Below are positions 9,129-63,927 of a stretch of DNA of 64,000 nt, piece after piece. The translations under genes were made by a program, and so were the position numbers. Within the stretch, counting starts at the first letter, position 1, and each line of letters starts with the position of its first letter. Location of the stretch: the IMG/VR virus record IMGVR_UViG_3300047462_000185, positions 32,001 to 96,000 of that record. The stretch is one strand, 5' to 3'. The notes beneath the pieces were generated by a model, which did not search any database, was not told the origin of the DNA, and saw only the letters and a list, made by a program, of their open reading frames with translations. This DNA is from a virus.

Positions 9129-9189
9129 GAACCGGCACGCCGGCTATGTGCCGACGGCTTCGCCCTCCTTCGGGGGCTCTTCGGGGTTC
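9129..9189 (-). ncRNA. Hammerhead-like element H1 (type I; core CCGAAGA; G15.1-C16.1)
   Basis: GAACC-CCGAAGA-GCCC..GGGC-GAA-GC..GC-C-GGUUC. Confidence 0.7.
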
Positions 9190-9886: not shown

Positions 9887-9891
9887 GGGTT

Positions 9892-9944
9892 GCCTTTCTG
9901 CCGGGATGCGCCGGCTGATCGCGCCACGCTATGCGCGGCAAGGC
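9892..9944 (-). ncRNA. Hammerhead-like element H2 (type III; core GCGAUCA)
   Basis: GCC-UU-GCCGCGC/GCGUGGC-GCGAUCA-GCCGG/CCGGC-A-GAAA-GGC. Confidence 0.7.
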
Positions 9945-9951
9945 GCCTCCG

Positions 9952-10389: not shown

Positions 10390-10396
10390 GTGGTTT

Positions 10397-10447
10397 CCTT
10401 TCTGCCGGTGAGCGCCGGCTGATCGCCCCGCACCTGGTGCGGGAAGG
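10397..10447 (-). ncRNA. Hammerhead-like element H3 (type III; core GCGAUCA)
   Basis: CC-UU-CCCGCAC/GUGCGGG-GCGAUCA-GCCGG/CCGGC-A-GAAA-GG. Confidence 0.7.
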
Positions 10448-10462
10448 CCCCGCGCTAGGCGG

Positions 10463-10729
10463 CTAGGAGGACGGCTCAACGATGGTTTCGAGAACGTCGA
10501 TGGTCTCAAACCGGATCACCTTGAGGCCCAGCCCGGCGTGCTCAGCAAGCACGATTGCAGCGCCGCGCATCTGTTCGAGAATGCCGCGATTGCCATGAAT
10601 CATCGGAAAGGTATCGAGCCCCAACGTGATAGAGGGGATTCCCTCTTTTCCCTTTCCGTCGAAAACGACGAAGGCGAAATACTCGGTGATCGGATCACGC
10701 AGAGGCATGTTTTTCAGAACGTCAGGCAT
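10463..10729 (-). CDS. Hypothetical protein
   Basis: GAGGAG RBS inside H4. Confidence 0.65.
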   Translation of the reverse strand: MPDVLKNMPLRDPITEYFAFVVFDGKGKEGIPSITLGLDTFPMIHGNRGILEQMRGAAIVLAEHAGLGLKVIRFETIDVLETIVEPSS

Positions 10730-10736
10730 TGGGTAT

Positions 10737-10783
10737 CTCCTCGGTCCGGCACTATTGCCGGGGAAGCCTATTCTGGCTTTTCG
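10737..10783 (-). ncRNA. Hammerhead-like element H4 (type II; core CCGAGGA; UUC triplet)
   Basis: C-GAAA-AGCC/GGCU-UC-C-CCGGCA/UGCCGG-A-CCGAGGA-G. Confidence 0.7.
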
Positions 10784-11543
10784 GATGAGCCCTGGACCGG
10801 CGCCGGCGGCGGCTCAGGCCCCGCGCCTTCCTTGTCGTCGGGCGGAGCGGCGGGCGGCTGGTTGATCTTCTGGATCAGGTCATGGGCCAGTTCGGCCGCA
10901 ATCTTGTAGTGCAACTCGCGATCGAGGGCCGGCATGTTGGTGCGCCGCATCGTCTCCTCGATGATCAGGAAAGCGGCAAAAAGCATGTCCTGCATGGGCC
11001 GCTCGTTCAGCAGCGCGACGAGGATATTGTATGTCGCCATCGTGGCGGGAAACCGCATCTGAAGCAGGGCGCGTAGCTGAACGTCGAGGAATTTGGTGCG
11101 CTCGTGCGCCACCACCTCATCGGGCGAAGGGACAATGTTGAACAGCCTCATCGCGTCTTTCTCGTCCATGACTTCCTCGGCCTGGTTGAACAGGTAGGCC
11201 GCGGCGCGGCCTTTCAATTGGGTTTGGTAAGCCCGGAGCCACGGCCGATCAATCGGGATTGCTCGGTTTCGGCGTAATCGATGAAGCTCTTGGCGAGGCT
11301 TTGCATAGCGGCCTCGGTGCGGTTCCGCTCCTCCGGGGTGAAATTGCCATTGCGATAGACAGCCTCCAGTTCGGCGTGGAGCACGAACAGGATGATGATC
11401 TTCGATAACGGTTCGGCCATCAGAACGCCGGCGATGCGCTGACCGAGCTGAGTGACCTTCGATCTGTTGAGATCGATCATCATCTTCAGCTGGGCGGCCA
11501 ATCTTTCCTCGGCAGACATCTGGGAAATTCTGTCGTCTGGCAT
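10768..11543 (-). CDS. Two coupled hypothetical proteins (10768-11217, 11214-11543)
   Basis: Clean ORFs with 4 nt overlap, bracketed by H5 and H4. Confidence 0.6.
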
Positions 11544-11550
11544 TGGGTAT

Positions 11551-11606
11551 CTCCTCAGTCCGGCACTATTGCCGGGGAGCCCGACGGGTGCGCCGTCAGG
11601 GTTTCG
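11551..11606 (-). ncRNA. Hammerhead-like element H5 (type II; core CUGAGGA; CUC triplet)
   Basis: C-GAAA-C-CCUGACGG/CCGUCGGG-CUC-C-CCGGCA/UGCCGG-A-CUGAGGA-G. Confidence 0.7.
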
Positions 11607-11838
11607 TCGCGCGATTTTGCGTCTTCAGTTCGCGGTCAATCTCATGCCGCTCGGTTGTTGTCGTTTCCGATTGGTATAATTCATCCAACAGCCACGCCGT
11701 GGCCCGGCATGACGCCGCGATGCCGTCGCGCTTGCCGCAATAGGACGCAACAACCCGCTGCGCTGCTTCAATCGCTACGACGGCTCGCCGAAGCTTGGTG
11801 AGGTCTTCCATCGTCAGGTTTGTGCCAGATTCTGGCAT
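11596..11838 (-). CDS. Hypothetical protein
   Basis: Lies between H6 and H5; stop inside H5 stem III. Confidence 0.55.
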   Translation of the reverse strand: MPESGTNLTMEDLTKLRRAVVAIEAAQRVVASYCGKRDGIAASCRATAWLLDELYQSETTTTERHEIDRELKTQNRATKP

Positions 11839-13378: not shown

Positions 13379-13475
13379 TTGTTTGTCCTGTTGTTGTGTC
13401 GCGGGGAGCAGCGCGACGGGAAAACTCCCAGCGCTCGCCAACCGTCATGGGGAAGGACGGCGAGGCTTCTGCGGC

Positions 13476-14129
13476 TCAGTTGTTGGTCCGAGCCGTGTCT
13501 TCAGGGGAGTATTCAGGAAGATCGATGTCGCGAAGAAGGTTGGAAAAGCGGCCAGTGCAGTTCTCGCGAAGTTCGTCATCCTTGTCTGGCACCAAGGCAG
13601 CGATATTGCCTTCGGTGTCGCGAATGATATCGAACATCGTGAGTTTTCGGACTGTCTGCGTTTCGCAGGTCATCACGACCACCTCGCGCCGGTCTGGCTG
13701 CTCCGAGGGTAGAAAATTCGGATCAGCCTTTAAGGCCTCAGGTGTGGACGTCGCGGTCCACGCTTCCATGACAAGGTAGATCAGGTCGGTGTTGCTCATG
13801 GAGCCGGCAAGTATCAGAGCGCCGGCCAGGGCATCTTTGAGATACGCCGAATTCGGCATGTCGCCCACGACGACCGGCACGAACATGCCGGATGAAGAAA
13901 CAAAGAAAGCGGTGAACGGACAGCTAGTCTTGCCGCGCAAGCTTGCCTCGATCATGGGACGAATTACGTCTCGCATGTGGCCGATCGGATCGGCTAATTG
14001 CTTGGCCACAATGTCGCGGGTGCGCTGCTCATATTTGCGCTTGGATAGTTCCACGACGTGAAAGACCAGATCCTTCAAGCTGCCGAACCTGACCTCGTCA
14101 TACTGTGGCGCGTTATGCGCTTCGCTCAT
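13476..14129 (-). CDS. Hypothetical protein
   Basis: MSEAHN..; MEAW..PSEQPDRREVV motif; RBS inside H7. Confidence 0.65.
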   Translation of the reverse strand: MSEAHNAPQYDEVRFGSLKDLVFHVVELSKRKYEQRTRDIVAKQLADPIGHMRDVIRPMIEASLRGKTSCPFTAFFVSSSGMFVPVVVGDMPNSAYLKDALAGALILAGSMSNTDLIYLVMEAWTATSTPEALKADPNFLPSEQPDRREVVVMTCETQTVRKLTMFDIIRDTEGNIAALVPDKDDELRENCTGRFSNLLRDIDLPEYSPEDTARTNN

Positions 14130-21154: not shown

Positions 21155-21223
21155 CGGACAGGTCTCCTCAGTCCTGGCTCCATTGCCAGGGGACCGCCTA
21201 GTCGGCGGCTTCGACGTCCGATG
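21152..21223 (-). ncRNA. Hammerhead-like element H8 (type II; CUGAGGA; GUC triplet; 11 bp stem II covering the AUG)
   Basis: CAUCGGAC-GUC-GAAG-CCGCC/GGCGG-UC-C-CCUGGC/GCCAGG-A-CUGAGGA-GAC-CU-GUCCGAUG. Confidence 0.8.
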
Positions 21224-24209: not shown

Positions 24210-25277
24210 ATGCATTCGTCGTTCAACGCCCCGGCCTGCTCTTGGGCATTTTCAATCACAGCGCCCTCGGCGCACGCAAAGCTGCTGTTGGTAGCGGTGG
24301 CTGCGCATGCGGATCAGGACGGGCTGTCGAAGGTCTCGATCACGCGGTTGGCCGAGATGACGGATATGAGCTTGCGGGGCGTTCACAACGTCCTGGCCCA
24401 ACTTGAGCGGGCACGCCTGATCGCCGGCGAGCGAGTGCCGGGCATCGTGACGGCCTACAGAATCAAATGGCGTGGCACCGCCAAGGAAATGGAGACCCCT
24501 GCACCGGATGCAGGGGTGGTTGTCGGAACTCCTGCACCGGATGCAGGGGTGGTTGTCGGAACCCCTGCACCGGATGCAGGGGTGGTTGTCGGAACCCCTG
24601 CACCGGATGCAGGGGTTCGCGCGCGCGTAGATTCTGAATCTCAGAGAGAGAAAGAAAGAAAGGAAGTAAGCAAGTCCTCAGATTCTTCTCCGCTTCGCTA
24701 CGAAGAATCTGAGACCCCCCTGCCCCCCACAGAAATTCCGACAGCGGCACAACTCGCCAAGGCTGAGATTGGCGGCAGGATGCGGGACATTTGGAACGCG
24801 GTGGTCAAGCCGTTCCCGCATTTTGCCCAGTCGAAGTGGCTCACCCCGAAGCTGCTCAATCTCGCGGTCGAGCGGTTCCAGCACGAGTTCAACCGCAGCT
24901 TCGAGCAGTGGGAAGCCTATTGCCGCAGGTTGACCAGGAACGCGTGGCTCCGCGGCGAACGTCCGGACGACAGGTCGTGGCGCCCCAGCATCGAGTGGGC
25001 CATCCAGGCCGACACGGTGCTGAAGGAGGCCGAGGGCCGCTACCCGCCCGACCCGGAGCCGAAGCCCCAGGTCGTGCAGCCGATGCACGACGTCGATCCC
25101 ACCCAGGACCCGATCTGGGGCAAGCCGAACAGGATCAAGCTCGAGATCGCGCTGGCGATGCAGCGCCCCGTGATCGACGACGCCAAGCTCCAGGAGCTGT
25201 CGCGCGACTACAAGGCGGCGCTGGTCGAGGCCAGAGCCGCCCAGGCCGCGCTGAGCGGGGCGGTGGCCCATGTCTGA
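24210..25277 (+). CDS. Replication initiator-like protein (N-terminal wHTH, internal iterons)
   Basis: AKLLLVAVAAHAD..SITRLAEMTDMSLRGV..LERARLI; GGAGG RBS; directly upstream of primase-helicase. Confidence 0.75.
   Translation: MHSSFNAPACSWAFSITAPSAHAKLLLVAVAAHADQDGLSKVSITRLAEMTDMSLRGVHNVLAQLERARLIAGERVPGIVTAYRIKWRGTAKEMETPAPDAGVVVGTPAPDAGVVVGTPAPDAGVVVGTPAPDAGVRARVDSESQREKERKEVSKSSDSSPLRYEESETPLPPTEIPTAAQLAKAEIGGRMRDIWNAVVKPFPHFAQSKWLTPKLLNLAVERFQHEFNRSFEQWEAYCRRLTRNAWLRGERPDDRSWRPSIEWAIQADTVLKEAEGRYPPDPEPKPQVVQPMHDVDPTQDPIWGKPNRIKLEIALAMQRPVIDDAKLQELSRDYKAALVEARAAQAALSGAVAHV
24495..24616. repeat. Four 33 bp iteron-like repeats (probable origin)
   Basis: ACCCCTGCACCGGATGCAGGGGTGGTTGTCGGA x3.7, each with an internal inverted repeat, followed by an A-rich tract. 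Confidence 0.75.
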
Positions 25278-35794: not shown

Positions 35795-35841
35795 CCTTTC
35801 AAGGGGTGAACCCTTTCATCGGCCTGCATCGAGCAGGAAGG
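35795..35841 (-). ncRNA. Hammerhead-like element H13 (type III; core CCGAUGA; canonical C3-G8 and GAAA)
   Basis: CC-UU-CCUGC/GCAGG-CCGAUGA-AAGGG/CCCUU-GAAA-GG. Confidence 0.8.
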
Positions 35842-36213: not shown

Positions 36214-36228
36214 TCTGAATATGTGGTT

Positions 36229-36273
36229 CTCCTCAGTCCGGCGGGATGCCGGGCACCGGGTCAGCCGGTTTCG
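36229..36273 (-). ncRNA. Hammerhead-like element H14 (type II; CUGAGGA; G17)
   Basis: C-GAAA-CCGG/CCGG-UG-C-CCGGC/GCCGG-A-CUGAGGA-G. Confidence 0.7.
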
Positions 36274-36677
36274 ATTGCGTTTACGTCGGCGATACGCGCT
36301 ACGGTCTGGCGCTTGCCGTCAAGAGTCACACCTACGACGGAAGGGATAAACCCTGCCGCATCGTAGAAACGCACCACGCGGAAAATCAAAGTGGGATATC
36401 CGATCAAGGTGAAGTGGCTCATCTTTCGTCTCCTCAGTCCGGCGGGATCGCCGGGCACCGGCTAGGCCGGTTTCGTCTCAGGCCATTCGATGCCTTCCGC
36501 GACGCCTGCGAGATGATAGATGTCGCGGGGCGATACGTCAGTAGGAGCCGAAAGACGGCAAGCGTTCTGCGCGAAGGCGACCTTTGCCGCAGGCATTCCG
36601 GCTGCTGCGTTCCGGGCGAGATGCCGCAGATGTGGGTAGCGCCGCACGTAGGCGTCGAGAACTGATTGTGGGATCAT
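36261..36677 (-). CDS. Two small hypothetical proteins (36261-36422, 36462-36677)
   Basis: Each has its RBS in a type II element and its stop in the next element. Confidence 0.6.
36430..36475 (-). ncRNA. Hammerhead-like element H15 (type II; CUGAGGA; G17)
   Basis: C-GAAA-CCGGC/GCCGG-UG-C-CCGGCG/CGCCGG-A-CUGAGGA-G. Confidence 0.7.
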
Positions 36678-36683
36678 TATTTT

Positions 36684-36740
36684 CTCCTCAGTCCGGCGGG
36701 ATGCCGGGCATCCGGCCAGGTCGATCCTGGCCGGGTTTCG
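36684..36740 (-). ncRNA. Hammerhead-like element H16 (type II; CUGAGGA; G17)
   Basis: C-GAAA-C-CCGGCCAGG/CCUGGCCGG-AUG-C-CCGGC/GCCGG-A-CUGAGGA-G. Confidence 0.7.
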
Positions 36741-37421: not shown

Positions 37422-37427
37422 TAGTGT

Positions 37428-37481
37428 GCCTTTCTGCCGGGAAGCGCCGGCTGATCGCGCTGGATGGGGGTCCAGCAAGGC
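37428..37481 (-). ncRNA. Hammerhead-like element H17 (type III; GCGAUCA)
   Basis: GCC-UU-GCUGGA/UCCAGC-GCGAUCA-GCCGG/CCGGC-A-GAAA-GGC. Confidence 0.7.
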
Positions 37482-37491
37482 CCCTGGTTGG

Positions 37492-38051: not shown

Positions 38052-38112
38052 GAGGCCTTTCTGCCGGCGAAGCGGCCGGCTGGACGCGCTGCACGGTGTG
38101 CAGCAAGGCCCC
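38052..38112 (-). ncRNA. Hammerhead-like element H18 (type III; GCGUCCA)
   Basis: GGGGCC-UU-GCUGCAC/GUGCAGC-GCGUCCA-GCCGG/CCGGC-A-GAAA-GGCCUC. Confidence 0.7.
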
Positions 38113-38113
38113 G

Positions 38114-38532
38114 CTAGGCGGGGGTAGCAGGCCCCTCAGGGCGCATGGAGTTGGGATGGGTGGGCAGCTGGCACCGCTTCGTCGTGAAGCGCGCCAGGCG
38201 CCGGTTTTCGCGTCGGATGAACCGAACCGCACTGGCCAGCGCCGCGACCTGGTCGGTCGCGAAGCAGTCGAGCGTCACGTAGTTGTGGTAGCTCGGGTGC
38301 CAGAAGCGATAGGTGAACATCTGCACGGCTACGCCGTCATGATCAGCAGCTGCTCGGCGCCATAGACTGCCGCCTCGCCGCACATCTCGCACTCGCCGCC
38401 TTCCATGTCGGGCTCGCATTCCTCGGCCTCTGCGCCGCATGCGGTGCAGAAGCCGGGGCTGTCGAGACTGGTTAGGTGCCGTTCGACCGCTTTCATGATG
38501 CGGTCCGTCGTGATGGACTCATGGATCTTCAT
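38114..38532 (-). CDS. Two small hypothetical proteins (38114-38320; Zn-ribbon 38329-38532)
   Basis: Second has GFCTACG..EPD..CEMCG..VYGAE. Confidence 0.6.
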
Positions 38533-38538
38533 GGGTAT

Positions 38539-38591
38539 GCCTTTCTGCCGGTAAGCGCCGGCTGATCGCGCTGCACGGTGTGCAGCAAGGC
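38539..38591 (-). ncRNA. Hammerhead-like element H19 (type III; GCGAUCA)
   Basis: GCC-UU-GCUGCAC/GUGCAGC-GCGAUCA-GCCGG/CCGGC-A-GAAA-GGC. Confidence 0.7.
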
Positions 38592-38597
38592 GCCCGG

Positions 38598-39050: not shown

Positions 39051-39057
39051 GGGTTGG

Positions 39058-39110
39058 TCCTTTCTGCCGGTGAGCGCCGGCTGGACGCGCTGGACGAGGT
39101 CCAGCAAGGA
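39058..39110 (-). ncRNA. Hammerhead-like element H20 (type III; GCGUCCA)
   Basis: UCC-UU-GCUGGAC/GUCCAGC-GCGUCCA-GCCGG/CCGGC-A-GAAA-GGA (stem III covariation). Confidence 0.7.
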
Positions 39111-39113
39111 GCT

Positions 39114-39245
39114 TCACCCCTCTGCATCTGGATCAGATTGGCGAGGCGTGAAGCAAAGCACTCCGATCAGCAGGCCAGCACCTAGCCCGATTAGGCCAAG
39201 GCTGCCCCATCTGAGCAACGTGCTGATGAGGAACAAAAGAGTCAT
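39114..39245 (-). CDS. 43 aa membrane peptide
   Basis: MTLLFLISTLLRWGSLGLIGLGAGLLIGVLCF..; between H21 and H20. Confidence 0.55.
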   Translation of the reverse strand: MTLLFLISTLLRWGSLGLIGLGAGLLIGVLCFTPRQSDPDAEG

Positions 39246-39251
39246 GGGTGT

Positions 39252-39304
39252 GCCTTTCTGCCGGATAGCGCCGGCTGATCGCCCCGCATCGGATGCGGGA
39301 AGGC
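39252..39304 (-). ncRNA. Hammerhead-like element H21 (type III; GCGAUCA)
   Basis: GCC-UU-CCCGCAU/AUGCGGG-GCGAUCA-GCCGG/CCGGC-A-GAAA-GGC. Confidence 0.7.
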
Positions 39305-39310
39305 CCGCCG

Positions 39311-39790: not shown

Positions 39791-39798
39791 GGATGTTA

Positions 39799-39851
39799 TC
39801 CTTTCTGCCGGGACGCGCCGGCTGATCGCTCCGCGGGGATCGCGGAAAGGA
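39799..39851 (-). ncRNA. Hammerhead-like element H22 (type III; GCGAUCA)
   Basis: UCC-UU-UCCGCG/CGCGGA-GCGAUCA-GCCGG/CCGGC-A-GAAA-GGA. Confidence 0.7.
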
Positions 39852-39891
39852 ATGAGCCGCCCCACCCGATTTGGGCAGGGCGGCTCGTTGG

Positions 39892-40871: not shown

Positions 40872-40916
40872 TCCCACCCGCGTCGCGGGTTCGCGCCTGA
40901 AGCGCTCGTCGGGGGA
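40872..40916 (-). ncRNA. Hammerhead-like element H25 (type I; CCGACGA; C15.1-G16.1)
   Basis: UCCC-CCGACGA-GCGC/GCGC-GAA-CCCGC/GCGGG-U-GGGA. Confidence 0.75.
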
Positions 40917-40931
40917 TCTGGGTGGCGGCCC

Positions 40932-41159
40932 TCAATGGATCTCGTATCGCTCGATCATGAGCCAGCCGCCGCATCTCTGGGGCTTGCAGGTGCAGGCGCC
41001 AGGGACGGCGATCATTTCGACCGAGCCGTCTGGGCAGGACAGGATGCAGCCACGTGGCGTGGTGTGGACGTGGTAGCCGCACCCCTCGTAGTGGCGGGCC
41101 GACATGTTGATGAACTGGTCGAGCGAGACGACCTTCTTGGGTCTCTGGCGCGCAGCCAT
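40932..41159 (-). CDS. Small Cys-rich protein
   Basis: GGAG RBS; several Cys. Confidence 0.55.
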   Translation of the reverse strand: MAARQRPKKVVSLDQFINMSARHYEGCGYHVHTTPRGCILSCPDGSVEMIAVPGACTCKPQRCGGWLMIERYEIH

Positions 41160-41199
41160 TGATGCTTCTCCGTGTCGTGAGGCGCGGGGATCCACGCCT

Positions 41200-41243
41200 T
41201 CCCGCCCGGCTCAGCCGGGTTCGCCTTGCGGCTCATCAGGGGA
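41200..41243 (-). ncRNA. Hammerhead-like element H26 (type I; canonical CUGAUGA; C15.1-G16.1)
   Basis: UCCC-CUGAUGA-GCC-GCAA-GGC-GAA-CCCGGC/GCCGGG-C-GGGA. Confidence 0.8.
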
Positions 41244-41856
41244 TTTTTTCGGCACGAAAGATTTCATGCCGCCGTCGTTTTCGATCTGATGGTGATTTTT
41301 CAGCGTATCGGACAGCAATCTGGCGACGCTGCCTGAACTGAGAAAGCCGATGATTTGCTTCTGATCGACGCCTAACTTGGCGACGCACTCGTTGTAGATT
41401 TCCATCGGCGAGAAGTTGCGATAATCCTGCGTGAGTTCGACGCGCACCAGCGCATAGATGACGTTGGTCCCGTCGCTCAGCAGGGTTTTGATCGTATTGG
41501 GCATATCTGACATGGGGATCTCCTTATGTTGGTCCCGCCCGGCCTAGCCGGGTTCGCCCTTGGCGGGCTCGTCTGGGGATTTGGGACGGCTAACGAACAT
41601 CGCGGTGCTCAGCTTGCTCGGTCATTGGCATGTTGCGCATAATGCCGAGCAGGATATTACGAGCTGCGGATGAGTTCATCGTCGTGATAACGGTCTCGGT
41701 CGACAACCTAGCGTGGCGCACCACGTCGGACTTTATCTCATCCGGCGCGTAGTTCTTGAGCGAATAGGGAAGCTCGAACCGCACCAGGGCATAGCCCACC
41801 TTCGGTCCGTCTAGCTCGGCCATCTGCTTGATTATTGCCATCGGGTGCATTGGCAT
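41211..41856 (-). CDS. Two paralogous small proteins (41211-41513, 41590-41856)
   Basis: IYALVRVEL..NFSPMEI vs GYALVRFEL..NYAPDEI. Confidence 0.6.
41533..41579 (-). ncRNA. Hammerhead-like element H27 (type I; CAGACGA)
   Basis: UCCC-CAGACGA-GCCC/GGGC-GAA-CCCGGC/GCCGGG-C-GGGA. Confidence 0.75.
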
Positions 41857-41893
41857 GGGGATTTCCTTCTGCTGAAGCACATATTGATGTGCT

Positions 41894-41945
41894 TTCCCGC
41901 CCGCACACAAGCGGGTTCGCGCCTATGCGGCGCTCGTCTGGGGAA
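41894..41945 (-). ncRNA. Hammerhead-like element H28 (type I; CAGACGA)
   Basis: UUCCC-CAGACGA-GCGCC/GGCGC-GAA-CCCGC/GCGGG-C-GGGAA. Confidence 0.75.
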
Positions 41946-43000
41946 GCTCGGCCAGCATCTGGGGTGAAAGGCGCAGGTTGGCGTGGGGACGCCGCGCCGC
42001 CTCTTGGCAGGCCATGTAGCCGATTGCCTGGCGAATCTTCTGCGCCGCGGCGTGAACCGTGCCGTCATAGGCCGGTTTCGTCACCACGGGCACAGACCAA
42101 CCGGCCACCTTGTGCAGGCCGCATTGGAGAGCGCCGCCGGCATGCAAGCTCTGAATCGCCGTCTCGAAGGCTTTCACCTCGTGGGGCTGGACCACGGCGC
42201 AGAACCGTAGCTCGGCCGTGGTGTAGGTCTGGCGCTGGTTGATCGCCATAGCAAGCAGGACGCGCCGCTCCATTGGATCGGTGAACATGGGAATCTCCTA
42301 TTTGGTTGGTCCCACCCGCCGCAGCGGGTTCGCGCCGTCAGGCGCTCGTCTGGGGAAGGAACTGGTCGGCCGGCGCCGCGCTGTCGCGGATCGCCTCGGC
42401 GATCGCGGCCGTCACCTCGTCTCGATCGGGCCGGAACGGCCGGTGATCGAGGGTCAGGTCGGCCGAGACGCGGATCACGGCGGCGCGCCGAACAGAGCAG
42501 GGCCAGCTGGACAGTGTCATGCGGAACATGGGGATATGCCTTTCTGCCGGGAAGCGCCGGCTGATCGCGCTGGATGGGGGTCCAGCAAGGCGCCCGCGCT
42601 AGGCGGGCTCCAGGACATGCTCCTGGGCAGGAACGGTTGGCCTGGTGGTGAGAGGCGTGCCATCGGGGTGCTCGCCCCACGCCTTCAGGCGCTCGATCGC
42701 GAGATCGAACATCTTCAGCACGGCCGGGTGGCCATACACGTCGTTCAGGTGAATGACGCTTAAGGCTCCTGGCTCAACCGCTCTCACGACCGAGGTCAGG
42801 GTCGGTGTGCCGCGCTCACCGTCGAGCTCGGCATTTTGGCTGACGAAGCGACAGGCCCCGATGGCGCACCACCGGACCGCGTTCGCCTGCAAAGCGAACG
42901 CGGATTCGCCCGAAGCATCGCGTGCCGCGGCAAACCGGCAATACCGATTTGGATCGCTGATCAGCGCCCGCGCCGCGACATACATCTCGAATTCGGTCAT
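41923..43000 (-). CDS. Three hypothetical proteins (41923-42288, 42338-42529, 42599-43000)
   Basis: Each is bounded by hammerhead-like elements; last has an RWCAIGA..ND motif. Confidence 0.6.
42310..42356 (-). ncRNA. Hammerhead-like element H29 (type I; CAGACGA)
   Basis: UCCC-CAGACGA-GCGCC/GGCGC-GAA-CCCGC/GCGGG-U-GGGA. Confidence 0.75.
42538..42591 (-). ncRNA. Hammerhead-like element H30 (type III; GCGAUCA; identical to H17)
   Basis: Same 54 nt sequence as 37428-37481. Confidence 0.7.
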
Positions 43001-43043
43001 GGAATCCTCCGTGTGGCCCGGAGCAGGGGCCGGTTGATCAAGC

Positions 43044-43103
43044 TCCTCCCCCGTGCCACATCGGCATGGGATTCGCGGTCCGATCAGAACCGCTCGTCAG
43101 GGA
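43044..43103 (-). ncRNA. Hammerhead-like element H31 (type I; CUGACGA; irregular cleavage-site region)
   Basis: UCC-CUGACGA-GCGGU/ACCGC-GAA-UCCCAUGCC/GGCACGGGG-GA-GGA. Confidence 0.6.
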
Positions 43104-43262
43104 CAAAAAGAGGCGCCCTCCCTATGGAGCAGAGAGAGCGCCTGAGTTTAGGTCTAGGAAAGCAACCAAGGGGGGAACGATCCCTTGGCCTATCAGAAAT
43201 GGTTACGAAACCGGCCAAGATCAAGGCTTTGTGAGCCATAAAACACATGATAATGTGAGTCA

Positions 43263-44246
43263 ATGCCGGTCCCCACGACTCTCACCCCTGAGCAGGAACT
43301 GCTGCTCGAACAGGACTACAGCAACCCATCCCTCTCGCTGCGCGCCCTCGCCGCCAAATACGGGGTCGACAAAAAAACCATCCAGCGCGCCGCCGTCCGG
43401 AACCGATGGGTCCGAGACTATGGCAAGCGCGCCAGAGAGGTGGCGAATGCCATTCTCTCGCAACATGCCAACCAGATCGTCGAGCAGATCGCTGACGACG
43501 CGCCACAGCCGCCACAAAGTCCCCAGCCTCCCACAGGACCAAAAGCCGTTGTGGTCGACCACCCGAAACGCCATGCGCCCCGCAAAAGCGCCCCACCGCG
43601 CCTGACCGTGGTCAGCGATCAGCCCCAGAATACCGCCCAACCACACCGACCCACCGCAAACCCCAGCGAAACAGCGCCGCTCGGGGATGCCGCCCCACCA
43701 CACGCCCCATCGTCCCAAAATACGTCGCTAGATGAAATGATGCAGCGCTTCGAGGAGGACGTGCGCGCCGAGGTCGCCGTGAATATCGGCCGCATCCAGG
43801 CCGCCGTCACGCTCCGCCAGCTCTACGAGACGCGCCAGTTCCACGCGACCTTCACTATCATGCAGCAACTGGTGCTGGACTGGCTCGGCGATGACCCGGA
43901 GAAACGTGAGCGGGCCGCCCATAAGCTGTTCGGCGGTGGCGCCAGGACCTCGATCGGCCACGTCATCAAGCAGCTGGCCGACGCGATGGGCATGAACGCG
44001 GCGCTCGAGCGCAAGATCGTGGGGATCGTCGATCAGCCCGATCAGCCGGCCGGCCAGCCTGGCGCGCCGGTCGAGGTGAACGTGACCCAGGTCATTGGCG
44101 AAATGCCCACCGAGAAGCTTCGGGTGCTCAACGAGGCGCTGGCTGAGATCCAAGGGAAGCGGCGCGACGCGAGGTCCCTCCCCGTCCCGCCTGGCTATGA
44201 GCCGCCGCCAGGGTCCACATCCGGTCCAGAGGAGGCGCCACGATGA
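43263..44246 (+). CDS. Probable terminase small subunit
   Basis: N-terminal HTH SLRALAAKYGVDKKTIQRAAVRNRWVRD; upstream of terL. Confidence 0.65.
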   Translation: MPVPTTLTPEQELLLEQDYSNPSLSLRALAAKYGVDKKTIQRAAVRNRWVRDYGKRAREVANAILSQHANQIVEQIADDAPQPPQSPQPPTGPKAVVVDHPKRHAPRKSAPPRLTVVSDQPQNTAQPHRPTANPSETAPLGDAAPPHAPSSQNTSLDEMMQRFEEDVRAEVAVNIGRIQAAVTLRQLYETRQFHATFTIMQQLVLDWLGDDPEKRERAAHKLFGGGARTSIGHVIKQLADAMGMNAALERKIVGIVDQPDQPAGQPGAPVEVNVTQVIGEMPTEKLRVLNEALAEIQGKRRDARSLPVPPGYEPPPGSTSGPEEAPR

Positions 44247-44458: not shown

Positions 44459-47035
44459 ATGAACCTGCCGGATGGTGTGGCCGAGATCAGGGACACGCTG
44501 CTCGCCAACGAGATCGCGATCCAGCGCGAGCTGGGCCGGCGCTCGTTCTACGACTTCTACAAGATGGCGTGGCCCGAGCTCGATCCGGCCCCGTTCGTCG
44601 ACAATTGGCACATCGGGCTGATCTGCGACGAGTTACAGGCCGCGGCGCGCCGCGAGGTGCTGAACCTGTGTATTGCAATTCCGCCAAGGCACAGCAAGCC
44701 TGTGCATGAGGATGAGCCGGTTCTCACTGCCCGAGGACGTATTTCATTGCGCGAAGTGGTGGTGGGCGATTTCGTTCTGACCCACATGGGACGCTTTCGG
44801 CGAGTCGAGGCGGTTCACATCCAGGGCGAGTTGCCTACGCTCACGGTGCGCGCCTGGTCAGGTCGCGCTGCCCGTATGGCACCTGACCATCCTCTGCTGA
44901 CGGCGCGTGGGTGGGTGCAAGCCCAGCATTTGGTTGCGGGTGACAGGGCAGCGGTCGCACGCATCGATGAGCAATGTGGGCAGGATACCGTCTCGGCCGA
45001 GGAGGCGCGACTTCTGGGCTATCTGGTGGGTGATGGATCATGCACTCACTCGGCAATCAACATCACAGCTCTAGATGAGACTGAAATTGCCGATATCCAG
45101 GCATGCGCCAACACCCTCGGGATCGGGACGTCCATCACACGCAAAACAAAGACCGCAGCGGTCAAAGTCGGATTACTCAATGACAGACTGAAAAACCGAT
45201 GCGGTGCTGCGCATCAGCTTATCGATCGTGCTGGCCTCACGGGCAAGAATAGCTACACGAAGCGAGCTCCGCCTTCGATTATGGCCGCAACGCAGCGCAT
45301 CATCGCCGAATTCCTGGCCGCCTACTGGGCCTGCGATGGGTATATCGCGAAACGGGGCTTCCTAAAGGACGGTAGAATTCGAACTGATGTCTGTGTCGGT
45401 TGCGACACGGTCAGCCGAGAGTTGGCGCTCGATGTCCAGCATTTGCTTTATCGGCTGGGCGTAAACTCTCGCGTCAGGACGAAGGTAGCGAAGATCAAGA
45501 CTAGGAAACAGGGTAGCGACACTTACACATCGTATTCCGTCTCGATGACGTCAGCTGATGATGTCGCGCGTTTTGCGTCGGCGGTCACAATTCCGCACGC
45601 CAAGCAAGCTCTCCTTGACCGACATAAGGGGCGCACAGACTTCGATAGGCCGCTCTGGCGCGATGAGATTGTGGCAATCGAGCAGAGTGAACCCGCGCCA
45701 TGTCGATGCCTGACGGTTGATGAGGATCAAAGCTTCACCGCAGGCGACCTGGTGGTCCACAACAGCCTGCTCTGCTCCGTGGCGTTCCCGGCCTGGGTGT
45801 GGACCTGGTGGCCCGCGGCCCGCTTCATCACGTCGAGCTACGATGTGGTGAAGCTCGCGATGCGGGACGCGCTGGCGGCGCGCCGGCTGGTGACCAGCGA
45901 CTGGTATCAGACGCGCTTCCCCGAAGTGAAGCTGGCGGCCGATCAGAACGTCAAGAGCTTCTACCAGACCACGGCGGGCGGGGCGCGGTTCGCCTGTAGC
46001 CCGACGGCCGGCCTCACCGGTCATGGCGCCGATTTCGCGATGTTCGACGACCCGCACAACGTCACGAAGGGTGAGTCCGAGAAGGATAGGGACAGGGCCA
46101 GGACGTTCTGGTTCGAGGCCATGTCGCCCCGGTTCAACAACCCGTCTCACGGGGTGCGGATCGTGGTCCAGCAGCGCGTCAACGAAGCTGACGTCGCGGG
46201 CGAGTGCATCCGGCGCGGCTATCATACAGTAGTTTTGCCGGCCCGGTTCGAGCGCGACCATCCGCAGCGCTCGCCTCGGGATCCGCGCCAGGTCGAGGGT
46301 GAGTTGCTTTGGCCCGACAAGTTCTCCGATGCGGATGTCACCAAGCTCGAAAAGGACATGGGGCAGTTTGCCGCGGCGGGCCAGCTGCAGCAGCGTCCCG
46401 TGCCGCGCGAGGGTGGGCTGTTCAAGCGCCACTGGTTCGAGATCGTGGACGCGGCGCCGGCGACGCAGCGCAGGGTCAGGTCGTGGGACCTGGCCGCATC
46501 CGAGAAGAAGGTCACGTCGAGCGATCCGGACTACACCGTGGGTCTGCTCATGTCGCTGTGCGACGGCGTCTACTACATCGAGGATGTGAGGCGTGACAGG
46601 CTCTCGCCGCACGGCGTCGAGCTGATGATCACGAACACGGCCAAGCAGGACGGCAAAGGGGTGAGGATCAGGTTCCCGCAGGACCCGGCCCAGGCCGGCA
46701 AGTTCCAGGTCCGCTATTACGTGACGCAGTTGGCCGGGTGGATGCTGCACATCGAGCAGGAGACCGGAGACAAGGTGACGCGTGCCGATCCGTTCTCGAG
46801 CCAGGCCGAGGTTGGGAATGTGAAGCTGGTCAAGGGCGCATGGAACGAGGATTTCCTGTCGGAGATCGCGATATTTCCTGGGGGTGCGCACGACGACCAG
46901 GTCGATGCGGCGACGGGCGCGTTTCGGGCCCTGACGAGCGGCACGACGGGGATCATCGACTTCTACCGGCAGCAGATCGCGGCGCGTGACGCGGCGCGTG
47001 ACGCGGCACGGGGTCCGGGCGACGGCACACGATAG
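44459..47035 (+). CDS. terL: Terminase large subunit with intein
   Basis: PPRHSK|S Walker A, FDDPH Walker B, WDLA, HDDQVDA nuclease motifs. Confidence 0.92.
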   Translation: MNLPDGVAEIRDTLLANEIAIQRELGRRSFYDFYKMAWPELDPAPFVDNWHIGLICDELQAAARREVLNLCIAIPPRHSKPVHEDEPVLTARGRISLREVVVGDFVLTHMGRFRRVEAVHIQGELPTLTVRAWSGRAARMAPDHPLLTARGWVQAQHLVAGDRAAVARIDEQCGQDTVSAEEARLLGYLVGDGSCTHSAINITALDETEIADIQACANTLGIGTSITRKTKTAAVKVGLLNDRLKNRCGAAHQLIDRAGLTGKNSYTKRAPPSIMAATQRIIAEFLAAYWACDGYIAKRGFLKDGRIRTDVCVGCDTVSRELALDVQHLLYRLGVNSRVRTKVAKIKTRKQGSDTYTSYSVSMTSADDVARFASAVTIPHAKQALLDRHKGRTDFDRPLWRDEIVAIEQSEPAPCRCLTVDEDQSFTAGDLVVHNSLLCSVAFPAWVWTWWPAARFITSSYDVVKLAMRDALAARRLVTSDWYQTRFPEVKLAADQNVKSFYQTTAGGARFACSPTAGLTGHGADFAMFDDPHNVTKGESEKDRDRARTFWFEAMSPRFNNPSHGVRIVVQQRVNEADVAGECIRRGYHTVVLPARFERDHPQRSPRDPRQVEGELLWPDKFSDADVTKLEKDMGQFAAAGQLQQRPVPREGGLFKRHWFEIVDAAPATQRRVRSWDLAASEKKVTSSDPDYTVGLLMSLCDGVYYIEDVRRDRLSPHGVELMITNTAKQDGKGVRIRFPQDPAQAGKFQVRYYVTQLAGWMLHIEQETGDKVTRADPFSSQAEVGNVKLVKGAWNEDFLSEIAIFPGGAHDDQVDAATGAFRALTSGTTGIIDFYRQQIAARDAARDAARGPGDGTR
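44699..45763 (+). mobile_element. Intein (355 aa) with LAGLIDADG homing endonuclease, starting with Pro
   Basis: PVHEDEPVLT..DHPLLTARGW..LLGYLVGDGS..FLAAYWACDGYI..CRCLTV..VVHN|S; lower GC than exteins. Confidence 0.9.
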
Positions 47036-61394: not shown

Positions 61395-61469
61395 GGGGGC
61401 GTAGCTCAGCGGGAGAGCACTGGTCCTGCAAACCGGGTGTCGTCGGTTCGAGTCCGACCGCTTCCACCA
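61395..61469 (+). tRNA. tRNA-Ala(TGC)
   Basis: Cloverleaf, G3-U70, CCA. Confidence 0.85.
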
Positions 61470-61473
61470 CTAT

Positions 61474-61548
61474 GCGGCTGTAGCTCAGAGGTAGAGCACC
61501 TGCTTGCCAAGCAGGATGTCGAGGGTTCGATTCCCTCTGGCCGCTCCA
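61474..61548 (+). tRNA. tRNA-Gly(GCC)
   Basis: Cloverleaf, CCA. Confidence 0.9.
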
Positions 61549-61577
61549 TATTGCGTGTCCCGATTGGGACGATAGTT

Positions 61578-61652
61578 GCGCTTGTAGCTTAATGGTAGAG
61601 CCGGCTGCTCATAACAGCCTCGGTGCCCGTTCGACCCGGGCCGGGCGCACCA
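61578..61652 (+). tRNA. tRNA-Met/Ile2(CAT)
   Basis: Cloverleaf, CTCATAA loop. Confidence 0.85.
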
Positions 61653-61671
61653 TTTGGCTCGCGCAGGAGAT

Positions 61672-61747
61672 AGCGGGGTAGACTGGAGGCGGTTCCAGCT
61701 AGGTCTCATAAGCCTAAGAGGGTGGTTCGATTCCACCCCCGCTACCA
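61672..61747 (+). tRNA. tRNA-Met(CAT), initiator-like acceptor stem
   Basis: AGCGGGG/CCCCGCT, CTCATAA loop. Confidence 0.8.
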
Positions 61748-61751
61748 AATT

Positions 61752-61826
61752 GCCGATGTAGCTCAGTGGTAGAGCGCCGCTTTGAAGAAGCGGGCGTGGG
61801 TGGTTCAATTCCATCCGTCGGCACCA
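61752..61826 (+). tRNA. tRNA-Phe(GAA)
   Basis: Cloverleaf, CCA. Confidence 0.88.
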
Positions 61827-61830
61827 CGAT

Positions 61831-61906
61831 GCGGCGCTAACACTCTGGGGAGTGTGTCTGCCTTCCAAGCAGTTCCAGACGGGTTCGATCCCCGTGCGCC
61901 GCTCCA
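61831..61906 (+). tRNA. tRNA-Gly(TCC)
   Basis: Cloverleaf, CCA. Confidence 0.8.
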
Positions 61907-61968
61907 TCTAGCCGGGAGTGCTCCATTTTGCACGTCCGCGCCACGGTGCGGTCCGGCGGCCATTTCGA

Positions 61969-62045
61969 TCCGGTCGGTCCATAATGGCAATGGAACGAGA
62001 CTGTTAATCTCGACGCTGCTGGTTCGAATCCAGCGACCGGAGCCA
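61969..62045 (+). tRNA. tRNA-Asn(GTT)
   Basis: Cloverleaf, G73, CCA. Confidence 0.85.
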
Positions 62046-62049
62046 GTTT

Positions 62050-62123
62050 GGGAGTCAAGTGTTACGGTAGCACGACCGGCTCCAACCCGGTTAGCGTGGG
62101 TTCAACTCCTACGACTCCTGCCA
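62050..62123 (+). tRNA. tRNA-Trp(CCA)
   Basis: Cloverleaf, CCA. Confidence 0.85.
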
Positions 62124-62127
62124 AATT

Positions 62128-62203
62128 GCGTCGCGAGCCAGACGGCAGAGGCGTTCCGCTGCAAACGGAAAAACACCGTGTTCAATTCACGGGCGGCGCT
62201 CCA
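62128..62203 (+). tRNA. tRNA-Cys(GCA)
   Basis: Cloverleaf, U73, CCA. Confidence 0.82.
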
Positions 62204-62210
62204 ACTCGAT

Positions 62211-62286
62211 GGTGACGTGAGTCAGCCGGCGTGGACGGCCCGCTGTGACCGGGTCTAGATGGGTTCAACTCCCATACGTCACCCCA
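62211..62286 (+). tRNA. tRNA-His(GTG)
   Basis: Cloverleaf with G-1/C73. Confidence 0.82.
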
Positions 62287-62290
62287 ATTT

Positions 62291-62365
62291 GCCGGATTAG
62301 CACAGCGGAAGTGCAGTGGTTTTGTAAACCGAAGGTCAGGAGTTCGAATCTCCTATCCGGCTCCA
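62291..62365 (+). tRNA. tRNA-Thr(TGT)
   Basis: Cloverleaf, imperfect anticodon stem. Confidence 0.8.
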
Positions 62366-62374
62366 GTTTCATGA

Positions 62375-62447
62375 TCCCCGGTCGTCTAATGGCAGGACAT
62401 CGGATTCTGGATCCGAGGGTTGTGGTTCGAGTCCATGCCGGGGAGCC
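62375..62447 (+). tRNA. tRNA-Gln(CTG)
   Basis: Cloverleaf; acceptor stem one base short on the 3' side. Confidence 0.78.
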
Positions 62448-62484
62448 ATTGAAACACACACTTCGATGTGTTATTGCCGTTTTA

Positions 62485-62796
62485 ATGAAGATGCGCACCG
62501 ATCGCAGTCAGATCAAGGAAATGCTTCGAAGAGGCGTTTCATATTCGAAGATCACTGCTAAGACGGGCGCAACAAAAGGCACGCTCAGCTACATAGCAAA
62601 GAGCAGTGGAAAACCTCTAACGCTTCGTCTTGATCATTTCGATGGTGATGGAGGAAATCACGACATTGAAAACCTACGGTTCATATGTCCCAATTGCGAT
62701 AGCCAATCTCCAACTTACGGACACAGAAACCGCGGGCGTTACGCTCGGCTTGGGGTTAAGCTTTCAAGTGTGCAGGGTAGCCACACCGCGTTTTGA
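62485..62796 (+). CDS. HNH endonuclease (short, probably internally deleted)
   Basis: LDHFDGDGGNHDIENLRFICPNC.SQ..TY; N-terminal HTH; low GC; reads into the next tRNA. Confidence 0.7.
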   Translation: MKMRTDRSQIKEMLRRGVSYSKITAKTGATKGTLSYIAKSSGKPLTLRLDHFDGDGGNHDIENLRFICPNCDSQSPTYGHRNRGRYARLGVKLSSVQGSHTAF

Positions 62797-62835
62797 GCGC
62801 GGAAGCAAGGGGTTCGACTCCTCGGCCCCAAACCA
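62751..62835 (+). tRNA. Atypical tRNA-Gln(TTG) with enlarged D region
   Basis: TGGGG acceptor, CCGCG-TTTTGAG-CGCGG, TTCGA T-loop. Confidence 0.6.
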
Positions 62836-62839
62836 GTTT

Positions 62840-62914
62840 CGCCCATTCGTTCAATGGCAGGACAACCGATTCTCGATCGGTCAACGCGGGTTCGATTCTC
62901 CGCATGGGCGACCA
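62840..62914 (+). tRNA. tRNA-Glu(CTC)
   Basis: Cloverleaf, CCA. Confidence 0.8.
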
Positions 62915-62917
62915 GTT

Positions 62918-62999
62918 GCGCGTGTGGCGGAACGGTAGACGCGGCCCCCTTAAAGCGGGCTGTCTCGGCGTGCAGGTTCGATTCCTGTCGCGCGCACCA
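62918..62999 (+). tRNA. tRNA-Leu(TAA)
   Basis: Cloverleaf with variable arm. Confidence 0.8.
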
Positions 63000-63172
63000 A
63001 TCAGGAGCAGCACATGAGTGATCGCGATGTCCCGCTGCACACCTACGAGCTGATCTATCGAGACGCCAATGTGAAGCGACAGCGCATGCGCGTCGCCGGC
63101 GGCTGGATCTACTCGTGCTCGCTGCTTAGCTCGACCGGCAGCGTGGCAATTTCGGAAGTTTTGGTTCCAGAT

Positions 63173-63249
63173 GCTCGCGTGGGCCAACAGGTAGAGTCAG
63201 CACGTTGAGAGCGTGTCCAGTGCCGGTTCGAGTCCGGCCGCGAGCACCA
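63173..63249 (+). tRNA. tRNA-Leu(GAG), short variable loop
   Basis: Cloverleaf, A73, variable region CCAGT. Confidence 0.8.
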
Positions 63250-63253
63250 GATT

Positions 63254-63330
63254 GCGGGGATGGGCAAATCGGTAAAGTCGCTGCGTTCAGACCGCAAGGT
63301 GTGGGCTTCGAATGCACCCGCTCTCCGCCA
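63254..63330 (+). tRNA. Degenerate tRNA-Leu(CAG)
   Basis: D-loop and anticodon arm recognisable; T arm and 3' end irregular. Confidence 0.5.
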
Positions 63331-63333
63331 AAT

Positions 63334-63422
63334 GGAAGGTGAAGTCGGCAGGAGCCGGCCGCCCGTTCGAAACGGGAGGAGACCCGCGAGGGTCAGGGGA
63401 TCAAGACCTCCGCCTTCCGCCA
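63334..63422 (+). tRNA. tRNA-Ser(CGA)
   Basis: Long variable arm, G73; T-loop ATCAAGA. Confidence 0.75.
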
Positions 63423-63426
63423 GCTT

Positions 63427-63515
63427 GGATCGTGCCGGGGGTTGGCTCCCCCAGCGGGTTGCTAACCCGTGGCTCCCCTCCGGGGATGAGGGTTCGATGC
63501 CTTCACGATCCGCCA
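63427..63515 (+). tRNA. tRNA-Ser(GCT)
   Basis: Long variable arm, G73. Confidence 0.8.
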
Positions 63516-63516
63516 T

Positions 63517-63592
63517 GCCCCGTTAGCAGAGTGGCTAATGCGCGTCCTTGGTAAGGACGAGATCGCCGGTTCGATTCCGGCACGGGGCTCCA
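63517..63592 (+). tRNA. tRNA-Thr(GGT)
   Basis: Cloverleaf, CCA. Confidence 0.88.
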
Positions 63593-63678
63593 TACGACCA
63601 GCCGTTTGCACCACGCCTGAGCCGGCCGCGGCCTGATGGGGCCGGACGCTTTCGCGAACGGGTGTGGCAGGCTGTGCT

Positions 63679-63763
63679 GGGCAGGGACAGCCGGTGGCTC
63701 CGGCGAGCGGCCTGTAAAGCCGTGCCCTTCGGGGGAGAGGATCGAAACCTCACCTGCCCACCA
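63679..63763 (+). tRNA. tRNA-Tyr(GTA)
   Basis: Variable arm, CTGTAAA loop. Confidence 0.78.
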
Positions 63764-63765
63764 TT

Positions 63766-63840
63766 GCTCGCGTAGCTCAATGGCAGAGCAGTCGGTTGAT
63801 AACCGACCGACGATGGGTTCGATTCCCACCGCAAGCACCA
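63766..63840 (+). tRNA. tRNA-Ile(GAT)
   Basis: Cloverleaf, CCA. Confidence 0.85.
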
Positions 63841-63851
63841 GATCACGAGAA

Positions 63852-63927
63852 ACACCGGTAACTCAGAGGCCAGAGTGCTGTCCTTTTAAGTCAGAGGTCG
63901 CGGGTTCGAATCCCGTCCGGTGTTCCA
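63852..63927 (+). tRNA. tRNA-Lys(TTT)
   Basis: Cloverleaf, CTTTTAA loop. Confidence 0.82.

Follow-up and report, generated by a model that had tools for sequence, protein, structure and literature searches.

What becomes of a hammerhead ribozyme when its most conserved base pair is replaced, by the same substitution, in every member of a family? This question is raised by five elements of 44-52 nucleotides (nt) that occupy successive gene junctions on the minus strand (positions 40872-42356) of a 64,000-nt stretch of viral DNA, here called the window, which comprises bases 32001-96000 of the 106,637-bp uncultured virus record IMGVR_UViG_3300047462_000185 of IMG/VR; all positions given below count within the window. 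The pair in question, A15.1-U16.1, is the most conserved of the hammerhead and its substitution lowers activity (PMC3088659, PMC4075628). It defines the sites that hammerheads can cut, and here all five members of a family have fixed the least tolerated substitution. Should they still cleave, the rule for cleavage sites, and the structural account given of it, would need revision and engineered hammerheads would gain new target triplets; should they not, they would be a clear instance of a ribozyme fold retained for a non-catalytic task. Both outcomes bear on the purpose of the hammerheads found at phage gene junctions (PMC6765202, PMC6155905), the role of which is still open (PMC6765202). The elements, their fold and placement, their kinship with canonical hammerheads carrying A-U, and the selection acting on their unpaired core bases are established below, and from these we infer what can be said of continued cleavage, its rate, and its effect on the messages.

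All five elements have the same order from 5′ to 3′, in which UCCC is followed by C-N-G-A-Y-G-A, stem II, GAA, a stem III that runs from C15.1 to G16.1, Y17, and finally GGGA. Stem I (UCCC/GGGA) has 4 bp in four copies and 5 bp in one and is open-ended, while descriptor and folding place stem II at 3-5 bp and stem III at 5-6 bp. Stem III begins with C15.1-C-C-G and closes with C-G-G-G16.1, the 15.1-16.1 pair is C-G in five of five copies, and the triplets at the predicted cleavage site are GGU or GGC. The preliminary description of this DNA had read the C-G pair and the GGC or GGU triplets in five copies, as well as variation at position 4, and all five are indeed as it described, on the minus strand. 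In copies 1-5 position 4 is C, U, A, A, and A, so that U4 is kept in a single copy, position 7 is C, U, C, C, and C, and position 17, which is never G (H17), is U, C, C, C, and U. The loops are UCA, GCAA, GCCAA, GCAUA, and UGAC on stem II and GAC, UGA, UAG, UUGUGU, and UGCG on stem III, in the same order. By strict definition the family is therefore not a type I hammerhead, as it has no A15.1-U16.1 pair and does not keep U4.

Copy 1 (40872-40916; 69.3 bits in the covariance model described below) is the last of the operon and lies past the stop codon of the gene at 40932-41162; it has C3 at 40912 with C at position 4, C15.1 at 40889, G16.1 at 40877, and U17 at 40876, which puts the predicted cut between 40876 and 40875. 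This copy stands after the last gene of the block, and an AT-rich spacer then follows. Copy 2 (41200-41243; 62.2 bits) has the canonical core CUGAUGA and a 3-bp stem II with a GCAA loop, its C15.1, G16.1, and C17 being at 41219, 41205, and 41204, and the stop codon of the upstream gene (41211-41213) falls inside its loop III. Copies 3, 4, and 5 share the core CAGACGA. The first of these (41533-41579; 76.5 bits), with C15.1-G16.1 and C17 at 41537, is situated 23 nt ahead of the start codon (ATG) of the gene at 41211-41513, and it is the copy that gives a sub-threshold match of 17.4 bits to the Rfam family Hammerhead_HH9. Copy 4 (41894-41945; 65.2 bits) has the 5-bp stem I, C15.1-G16.1, and C17 at 41899, and the stop codon of the upstream gene (41923-41925) is inside its loop II. 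Copy 5 (42310-42356; 72.2 bits) has C15.1 at 42328, G16.1 at 42315, and U17 at 42314, with the predicted cut between 42314 and 42313; the upstream stop codon (42338-42340) is again inside loop II and the next ATG is at 42288. The coordinates of two copies were verified base by base against the window sequence.

A covariance model built from the five copies and run over the 64-kb window scored them at 62-76 bits, with the next best match at 15.6 bits. A descriptor that combined the core pattern with a stem I of at least 4 bp, a stem II of at least 3 bp, a stem III of at least 4 bp, and H17 gave five matches on the minus strand and none on the plus strand, and 100 dinucleotide shuffles, searched on both strands, gave a mean of 0.55 and a maximum of 3 matches; the count of five copies is far above chance. 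Three of the five copies, copy 2 among them, have as their minimum-free-energy fold the hammerhead three-way junction that includes the core-adjacent stem I. In one further copy an upstream GUCCC takes the place of the adjacent stem I strand, and from the fold of the remaining copy the 4-bp stem I is absent. At the gathering threshold Rfam returned only tRNAs and no hammerhead, and no hammerhead was matched in the whole window at E values up to 10; when a 2.4-kb slice was searched, Hammerhead_HH9, which is a type I family, scored 17.4 and 14.3 bits, well short of its threshold of 52, and in this the elements differ from the type I hammerheads in Rfam. However, a canonical relative of the elements also misses the threshold of RF00163 (20.2 vs. 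34 bits), and thus the failure in Rfam says little for short type I forms.

Relatives were sought by a pattern scan of virus, metagenome, and genome collections in which stem I, the first two pairs of stem II, and the stem III pairs 15.2 and 15.3 were fixed and positions 4, 7, 15.1, 16.1, and 17 were left free. It returned 35 distinct sequences, 29 of them with proper helices, and the other six were dismissed as chance matches in which stem III is absent or stem II almost absent. Every one of the 29 well-formed relatives carries U4, A15.1-U16.1, and a GUC, GUU, or GUA triplet, and they read CUGAYGA...GAAA...U-H. The premise of the preliminary description that A15.1-U16.1 is nearly invariant is thus sustained by these relatives, as it is by the published effect of substitutions on activity (PMC3088659, PMC4075628). 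Many of the canonical relatives have an equally short stem I and tetraloops, and many have a Shine-Dalgarno-like motif within about 30 nt downstream. In the joint alignment of 36 sequences 97.6% of the cells pair and 8 of the 13 pairs show double changes, with the 15.1-16.1 column comprising 31 A-U and five C-G pairs, all five of the latter from this window. When C-G forms were sought in virus records whatever their stem I, the pattern had 64 matches, none with three helices, and no well-formed C-G form was present in the metagenome or genome scans. Taken together, these comparisons place the family as a derivative, specific to this lineage, of type I hammerheads that are widespread among phages. 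We rejected GC pressure as the origin of the C-G pair, as A-U is kept in GC-rich relatives and in both of the other hammerhead-shaped families of this phage. Pairs of canonical type I hammerheads with the UCCC/GGGA stem I occur 390-570 nt apart in three contigs (L006, L011, and L028), and it may be added that these are unrelated metagenome and provirus contigs whose hammerheads fall below the RF00163 threshold.

Searches for close relatives of the phage itself, in which the evolution of the elements might be traced, were without success, although related strains were seen in moss DNA runs, which share 42-92% of sampled words. A search with the small terminase subunit found no close phage relatives, and the open reading frame (ORF) of 597 amino acids that presumably encodes the portal protein has one relative at 37% identity, which is without convincing elements (13 bits). 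Comparison of an element with GenBank phages by blastn yielded only chance matches in coding DNA, and a search for homologues of the 121-residue ORF of the block found only the protein itself.

The unpaired bases of the junction are largely shared by the five copies. Eight of the 11 are invariant (C3, G5, A6, G8, A9, G12, A13, and A14) and only positions 4, 7, and 17 vary, the last two being positions of tolerated variation in hammerheads in general (PMC4075628, PMC7092961), while loops II and III agree at practically no position. The same eight bases are retained, on other helices, in a diverged copy at 9129-9189. The combination of fixed unpaired bases with randomized loops shows that the hammerhead junction itself is still under selection, which is unlike what a plain spacer or a decaying relic would display.

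This diverged type I copy (9129-9189, minus strand) has the stem I GAACC/GGUUC, a core of CCGAAGA and GAA, G15.1-C16.1, and C17 at 9134, and it is placed directly upstream of a ribosome-binding site and ATG. At minimum free energy it folds into the type I three-way junction (z of -2.6), and its model scores are 15.6 and 17.9 bits. The G-C pair that the preliminary description had assigned to one copy was found here. Its U-G copy fared less well, since U15.1·G16.1 can be read at 43044-43103 (minus strand) and yet the minimum-free-energy fold of that stretch is not hammerhead-like and its model scores are only 13.3 and 20.3 bits. We regard it as a doubtful, degenerate first copy of the family, with the core CUGACGA, a 7-bp stem II, A17, and a stem I of 3 bp, the 5′ strand of which is the U-tract of a terminator at 43111-43143. 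A type I copy with G-U, also listed earlier, was not located in the window; a degenerate type-I-like junction at 13424-13510 aligns as G-C at 15.1-16.1, and a G·U pair was seen instead in a type-II-like copy near 21.2 kb. None of the type-I-like copies that were located in the window has A15.1-U16.1.

The setting of the elements is a block of six small minus-strand ORFs (40932-43000) of 133, 63, 121, about 89-106, 100, and about 76-87 amino acids, which are separated by the hammerhead-like elements and are divergent from the terminase genes, with the small subunit at 43263-44246 and the large subunit, which contains an intein, at 44459-47035. None of the six ORFs has a family match in Pfam or PHROGs, and two of them (g106 and g100) are paralogues. 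Six of the seven boundaries of the block carry an element (the five copies and the doubtful one) and the seventh holds a different repeat. Elements and genes are on the same strand, and the copies are clustered around single small ORFs, as in phage hammerhead clusters. The stop codons of upstream genes lie in loop II at 42338 and 41923 and in loop III at 41211, and the genes ending at 41590 and 40932 stop a few bases ahead of stem I. Two unrelated ORFs of 63 and 121 amino acids (41923-42529, minus strand) end in LPQTSA and LPQTSAA, tails that are encoded by the elements and are shared because both reading frames continue across stem I and the core and through half of stem II to stop codons in loop II.

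Two further features adjoin these genes. A LAGLIDADG homing endonuclease domain is part of the intein of the large terminase subunit (44459-47035, plus strand). The small-gene block is immediately preceded by a strong intrinsic terminator (region 43097-43182, minus strand), in which a 14-bp stem at 43111-43143 is followed by a U-tract, and the 86 nt that end in this terminator have a weak match, of 23 bits against a threshold of 41, to suhB/mmgR, an alphaproteobacterial small RNA family. The region 43097-43182 may be a phage small RNA, and the block behind the terminator may be dependent on read-through.

How do these elements compare with known systems? With the type I hammerheads of phages and prophages (RF00163, RF02275, clan CL00010; PMC3088659) they share the topology and the open stem I, the junction of C-N-G-A-N-G-A and G-A-A, H17, short GC-rich stems II and III, and the UCCC/GGGA stem I of the 29 canonical metagenomic relatives. 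They differ from them in having C-G, or in the outlying copies G-C and U·G, in place of A-U, and in the loss of U4 from four of the five copies. Clustered prophage hammerheads flank single genes of varying identity (PMC3088659), usually small and non-conserved ORFs (PMC6155905), and as in the clusters of Perreault 2011 (PMC3088659) the elements described here are found just upstream of a ribosome-binding site and ATG and flank single small ORFs. Natural core variants have been assayed before, namely U15.1-A16.1, A6C in phage Bcep176, and U3-A8 (PMC3088659), and G17 (PMC3884650), and these likewise deviate at supposedly invariant positions and are often intergenic in phages, with the loss of core contacts leading to cleavage that is slow but detectable. 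Those variants are single instances, whereas here one change, with G16.1, is fixed across five tandem copies.

Whether such a change is compatible with cleavage can be judged in part from published work. Mutants at 15.1 and 16.1 are at least 10-fold less active, and those of A15.1 more than 100-fold, and the change of U16.1 to G was recovered among those selected against a ribozyme inserted in phage MS2 (PMC3088659, PMC4075628). The natural U15.1-A16.1 variant cleaves, although slowly, and U4 contacts the A6-N7 phosphate (PMC3088659). The core rules of the minimal hammerhead are nevertheless relaxed in natural scaffolds, as is evident from G17 (PMC3884650), from U15.1-A16.1 and U3-A8 (PMC3088659), and from C4 (PMC4075628); the NHH rule of Kore 1998 is cited by name in PMC3884650. 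In the literature examined, no natural variant with G at 16.1 was found, and no active form with it either. The published mutagenesis thus predicts strongly reduced cleavage of the C-G copies, and the C-G pair, together with the loss of U4 in four copies and a short stem I without a visible tertiary partner, argues against a fast ribozyme.

The RNA data that bear on this point are low-depth assembled contigs from three plant and moss metatranscriptome runs that hold the phage, and from such contigs the ends of RNA cannot be read. The predicted cut of copy 5 is spanned by one contig (42280-42507), with more than 31 nt on each side, and that of the doubtful copy at 43044-43103 by a second (43008-43158); uncovered stretches between 40978 and 42147 carry no information. 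In one of the runs, three contigs terminate within core positions 3-5 of as many elements, for which loss of coverage at GC-rich hairpins is a likelier explanation than genuine RNA ends.

We tentatively favor the reading, to which we give somewhat less than even confidence, that the elements are attenuated hammerheads that process the operon by slow or partial self-cleavage. They would then represent hammerhead-derived punctuation in a polycistronic phage message, where the RNA of each junction would fold as a type I three-way junction with C3, G5, A6, G8, A9, G12, A13, A14, and Y17 in place. The most likely effect of the swap to C15.1-G16.1 (or, in one diverged copy, to G-C) and of the missing U4 is an attenuated ribozyme, whose cutting after Y17 would be slow and partial or else conditional, and neither fast nor complete. 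The upstream gene would survive such a cut intact, since its stop codon precedes the element or sits in loop II or III, and its message would end in two GC-rich hairpins; the next message would start with a 5′-OH leader, 22-45 nt ahead of its ATG.

Several points weigh against this proposal. Stem I is only 4 bp long, no consistent complementarity between loops and flanks that would provide a tertiary contact of stem I with loop II was seen by eye, and ribosomes terminating in loop II or III would unfold the element. The helices of the five copies alone are nearly without covariation, with a single double change, and stems I and III are invariant in sequence, and thus the structural support comes mainly from the relatives and from the diverged copy at 9129-9189. 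The RNA contigs that span predicted cuts, and so speak for an uncut form in keeping with attenuation, are weak evidence, given that carry-over of DNA is possible. Moreover, the NHH rule of Kore 1998 is said to exclude G at 16.1, and C-G and G-C at 15.1-16.1 were reportedly nearly dead in minimal hammerheads (Ruffner 1990, Kore 1998). The rate of cleavage may accordingly be too low to matter within the lifetime of the messenger RNA.

Such considerations lead directly to the alternative that the fold is that of a dead hammerhead, exapted and kept as a structure, where it could protect 3′ ends or insulate the cistrons from one another, or else bind a phage or host protein that reads the conserved junction, and a non-cleaving structural role of this kind is, in our estimation, almost as likely as attenuated cleavage. 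It would accommodate the strong biochemical prior against G16.1 and the more than 100-fold loss of activity in 15.1 mutants (PMC4075628, PMC3088659), the change of U4 to A or C in four of five copies where 29 of 29 relatives have U, the occurrence of C-G, G-C, or U·G at 15.1-16.1 in this phage as if it were an ordinary helix pair, the uncleaved form in an RNA library, and the short stem I for which no tertiary contact was found. What a purely structural role does not account for is the invariance of C3, G5, and A6 amid randomized loops, or that position 17 is never G, and no candidate binding protein is known; the neighboring ORFs are without a family match. The protein-binding site that the preliminary description offered as an example is, in particular, without direct support.

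That description had put forward a variant class with altered cleavage rules, slow ribozymes tuned for partial processing, and non-catalytic reuse of the fold, and the evidence tilts away from a fast variant with a new rule, given the drift of position 4, G16.1, and the spanning RNA contig, and also from a decayed relic. A fully competent natural class, which would cut after G-G-Y in a scaffold that tolerates C-G, is quite unlikely in our view. The core is otherwise intact and the change is common to all five copies, from which it follows that the family persisted and its loops diversified after the change arose, and the rules of the minimal hammerhead have been relaxed in natural scaffolds before (PMC3884650, PMC3088659, PMC4075628). 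Yet the C-G variant is absent from all other collections searched, the constraint on position 4 has loosened, the predicted cleavage site is spanned by a contig from an RNA library, and even the natural U-A variant is slow. The broader proposition that a natural lineage self-cleaves at a useful rate after G-G-Y with C15.1-G16.1 (and G-C) is also unlikely; if true, it would be the first natural exception to the rule of no G at 16.1 and would make the A-U pair dispensable in the right scaffold. Least probable of all is that the elements are boundaries of cassettes at the level of DNA, short homologies for the shuffling of small genes, or else decaying relics of former ribozymes. The layout of gene plus element, the ORF ends that are encoded by elements such that two unrelated proteins end in LPQTSA(A), and the several repeat families at junctions across the genome are what might be expected of cassettes, but strand and position relative to ribosome-binding sites and stop codons are strictly kept and conservation tracks RNA pairing and the hammerhead core and not a DNA block. 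Relics, for their part, would lose the eight unpaired core bases over five to six copies while their loops differ.

Some other roles and interactions were considered and set aside. The elements are not intrinsic terminators, as no U-tract follows them, and a tRNA-like substrate of RNase P was discounted because ACCA follows stem I in only three of five copies and in none of the relatives. Pairing of N4 with loop III fits four of five copies and is sterically implausible, and an alternative pairing of GGGA with a UCCC ahead of the ATG is not general.

The window contains other repeats of hammerhead-like layout, all on the minus strand. A second family, with a three-way junction in the layout of a type III hammerhead, has nine copies, at 9891-9948, 10395-10452, 37427-37484, 38056-38131, 38538-38595, 39057-39114, 39251-39308, 39798-39855, and 42537-42594. 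Its order is CCUU, a covarying hairpin, GCGAUCA, an almost invariant hairpin, and A-GAAAGG. The core pair is swapped, with G at position 3 and C at position 8 in place of the usual C and G, and there is an extra A before GAAA; in two copies the core reads GCGUCCA, with A6 lost. The Shine-Dalgarno sequence of the following gene falls within the closing helix CCUU/AAGG. A scan with the conserved core of this family returned no matches. One metatranscriptome contig joins 37426 to 42537, skipping 5.1 kb, by way of two second-family repeats that are 98% identical (a 55-nt repeat); the join probably arose in assembly, although a true deletion between the two copies is also possible.

A third family has the layout of a type II hammerhead and is found at 36227-36272, 36428-36474, 36682-36735, 10720-10790, 11534-11610, and about 21170-21215. 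In it GAA is followed by stem III, one base, a stem I hairpin with a basal C·A mismatch, and CUGAGGAG, which also contains a Shine-Dalgarno sequence. Its stem III has A-U, but G·U in the 21-kb copy, and the single base is G in three copies and C in the others; it has no match in Rfam. A near-canonical type III hammerhead motif at 35795-35841 (minus strand) has the core CCGAUGA, with C4, together with A15.1-U16.1 and U17, and stems I, II, and III of 5, 6, and 3 bp, respectively.

Elsewhere in the window and on the plus strand there is a tRNA array (61395-63924) with about 17-20 genes, 14 of which are above the Rfam threshold. At 24495-24616, also on the plus strand, a unit of 33 nt is present in three to four tandem copies, each of which contains a perfect hairpin (CCCCTGCA...TGCAGGGG).

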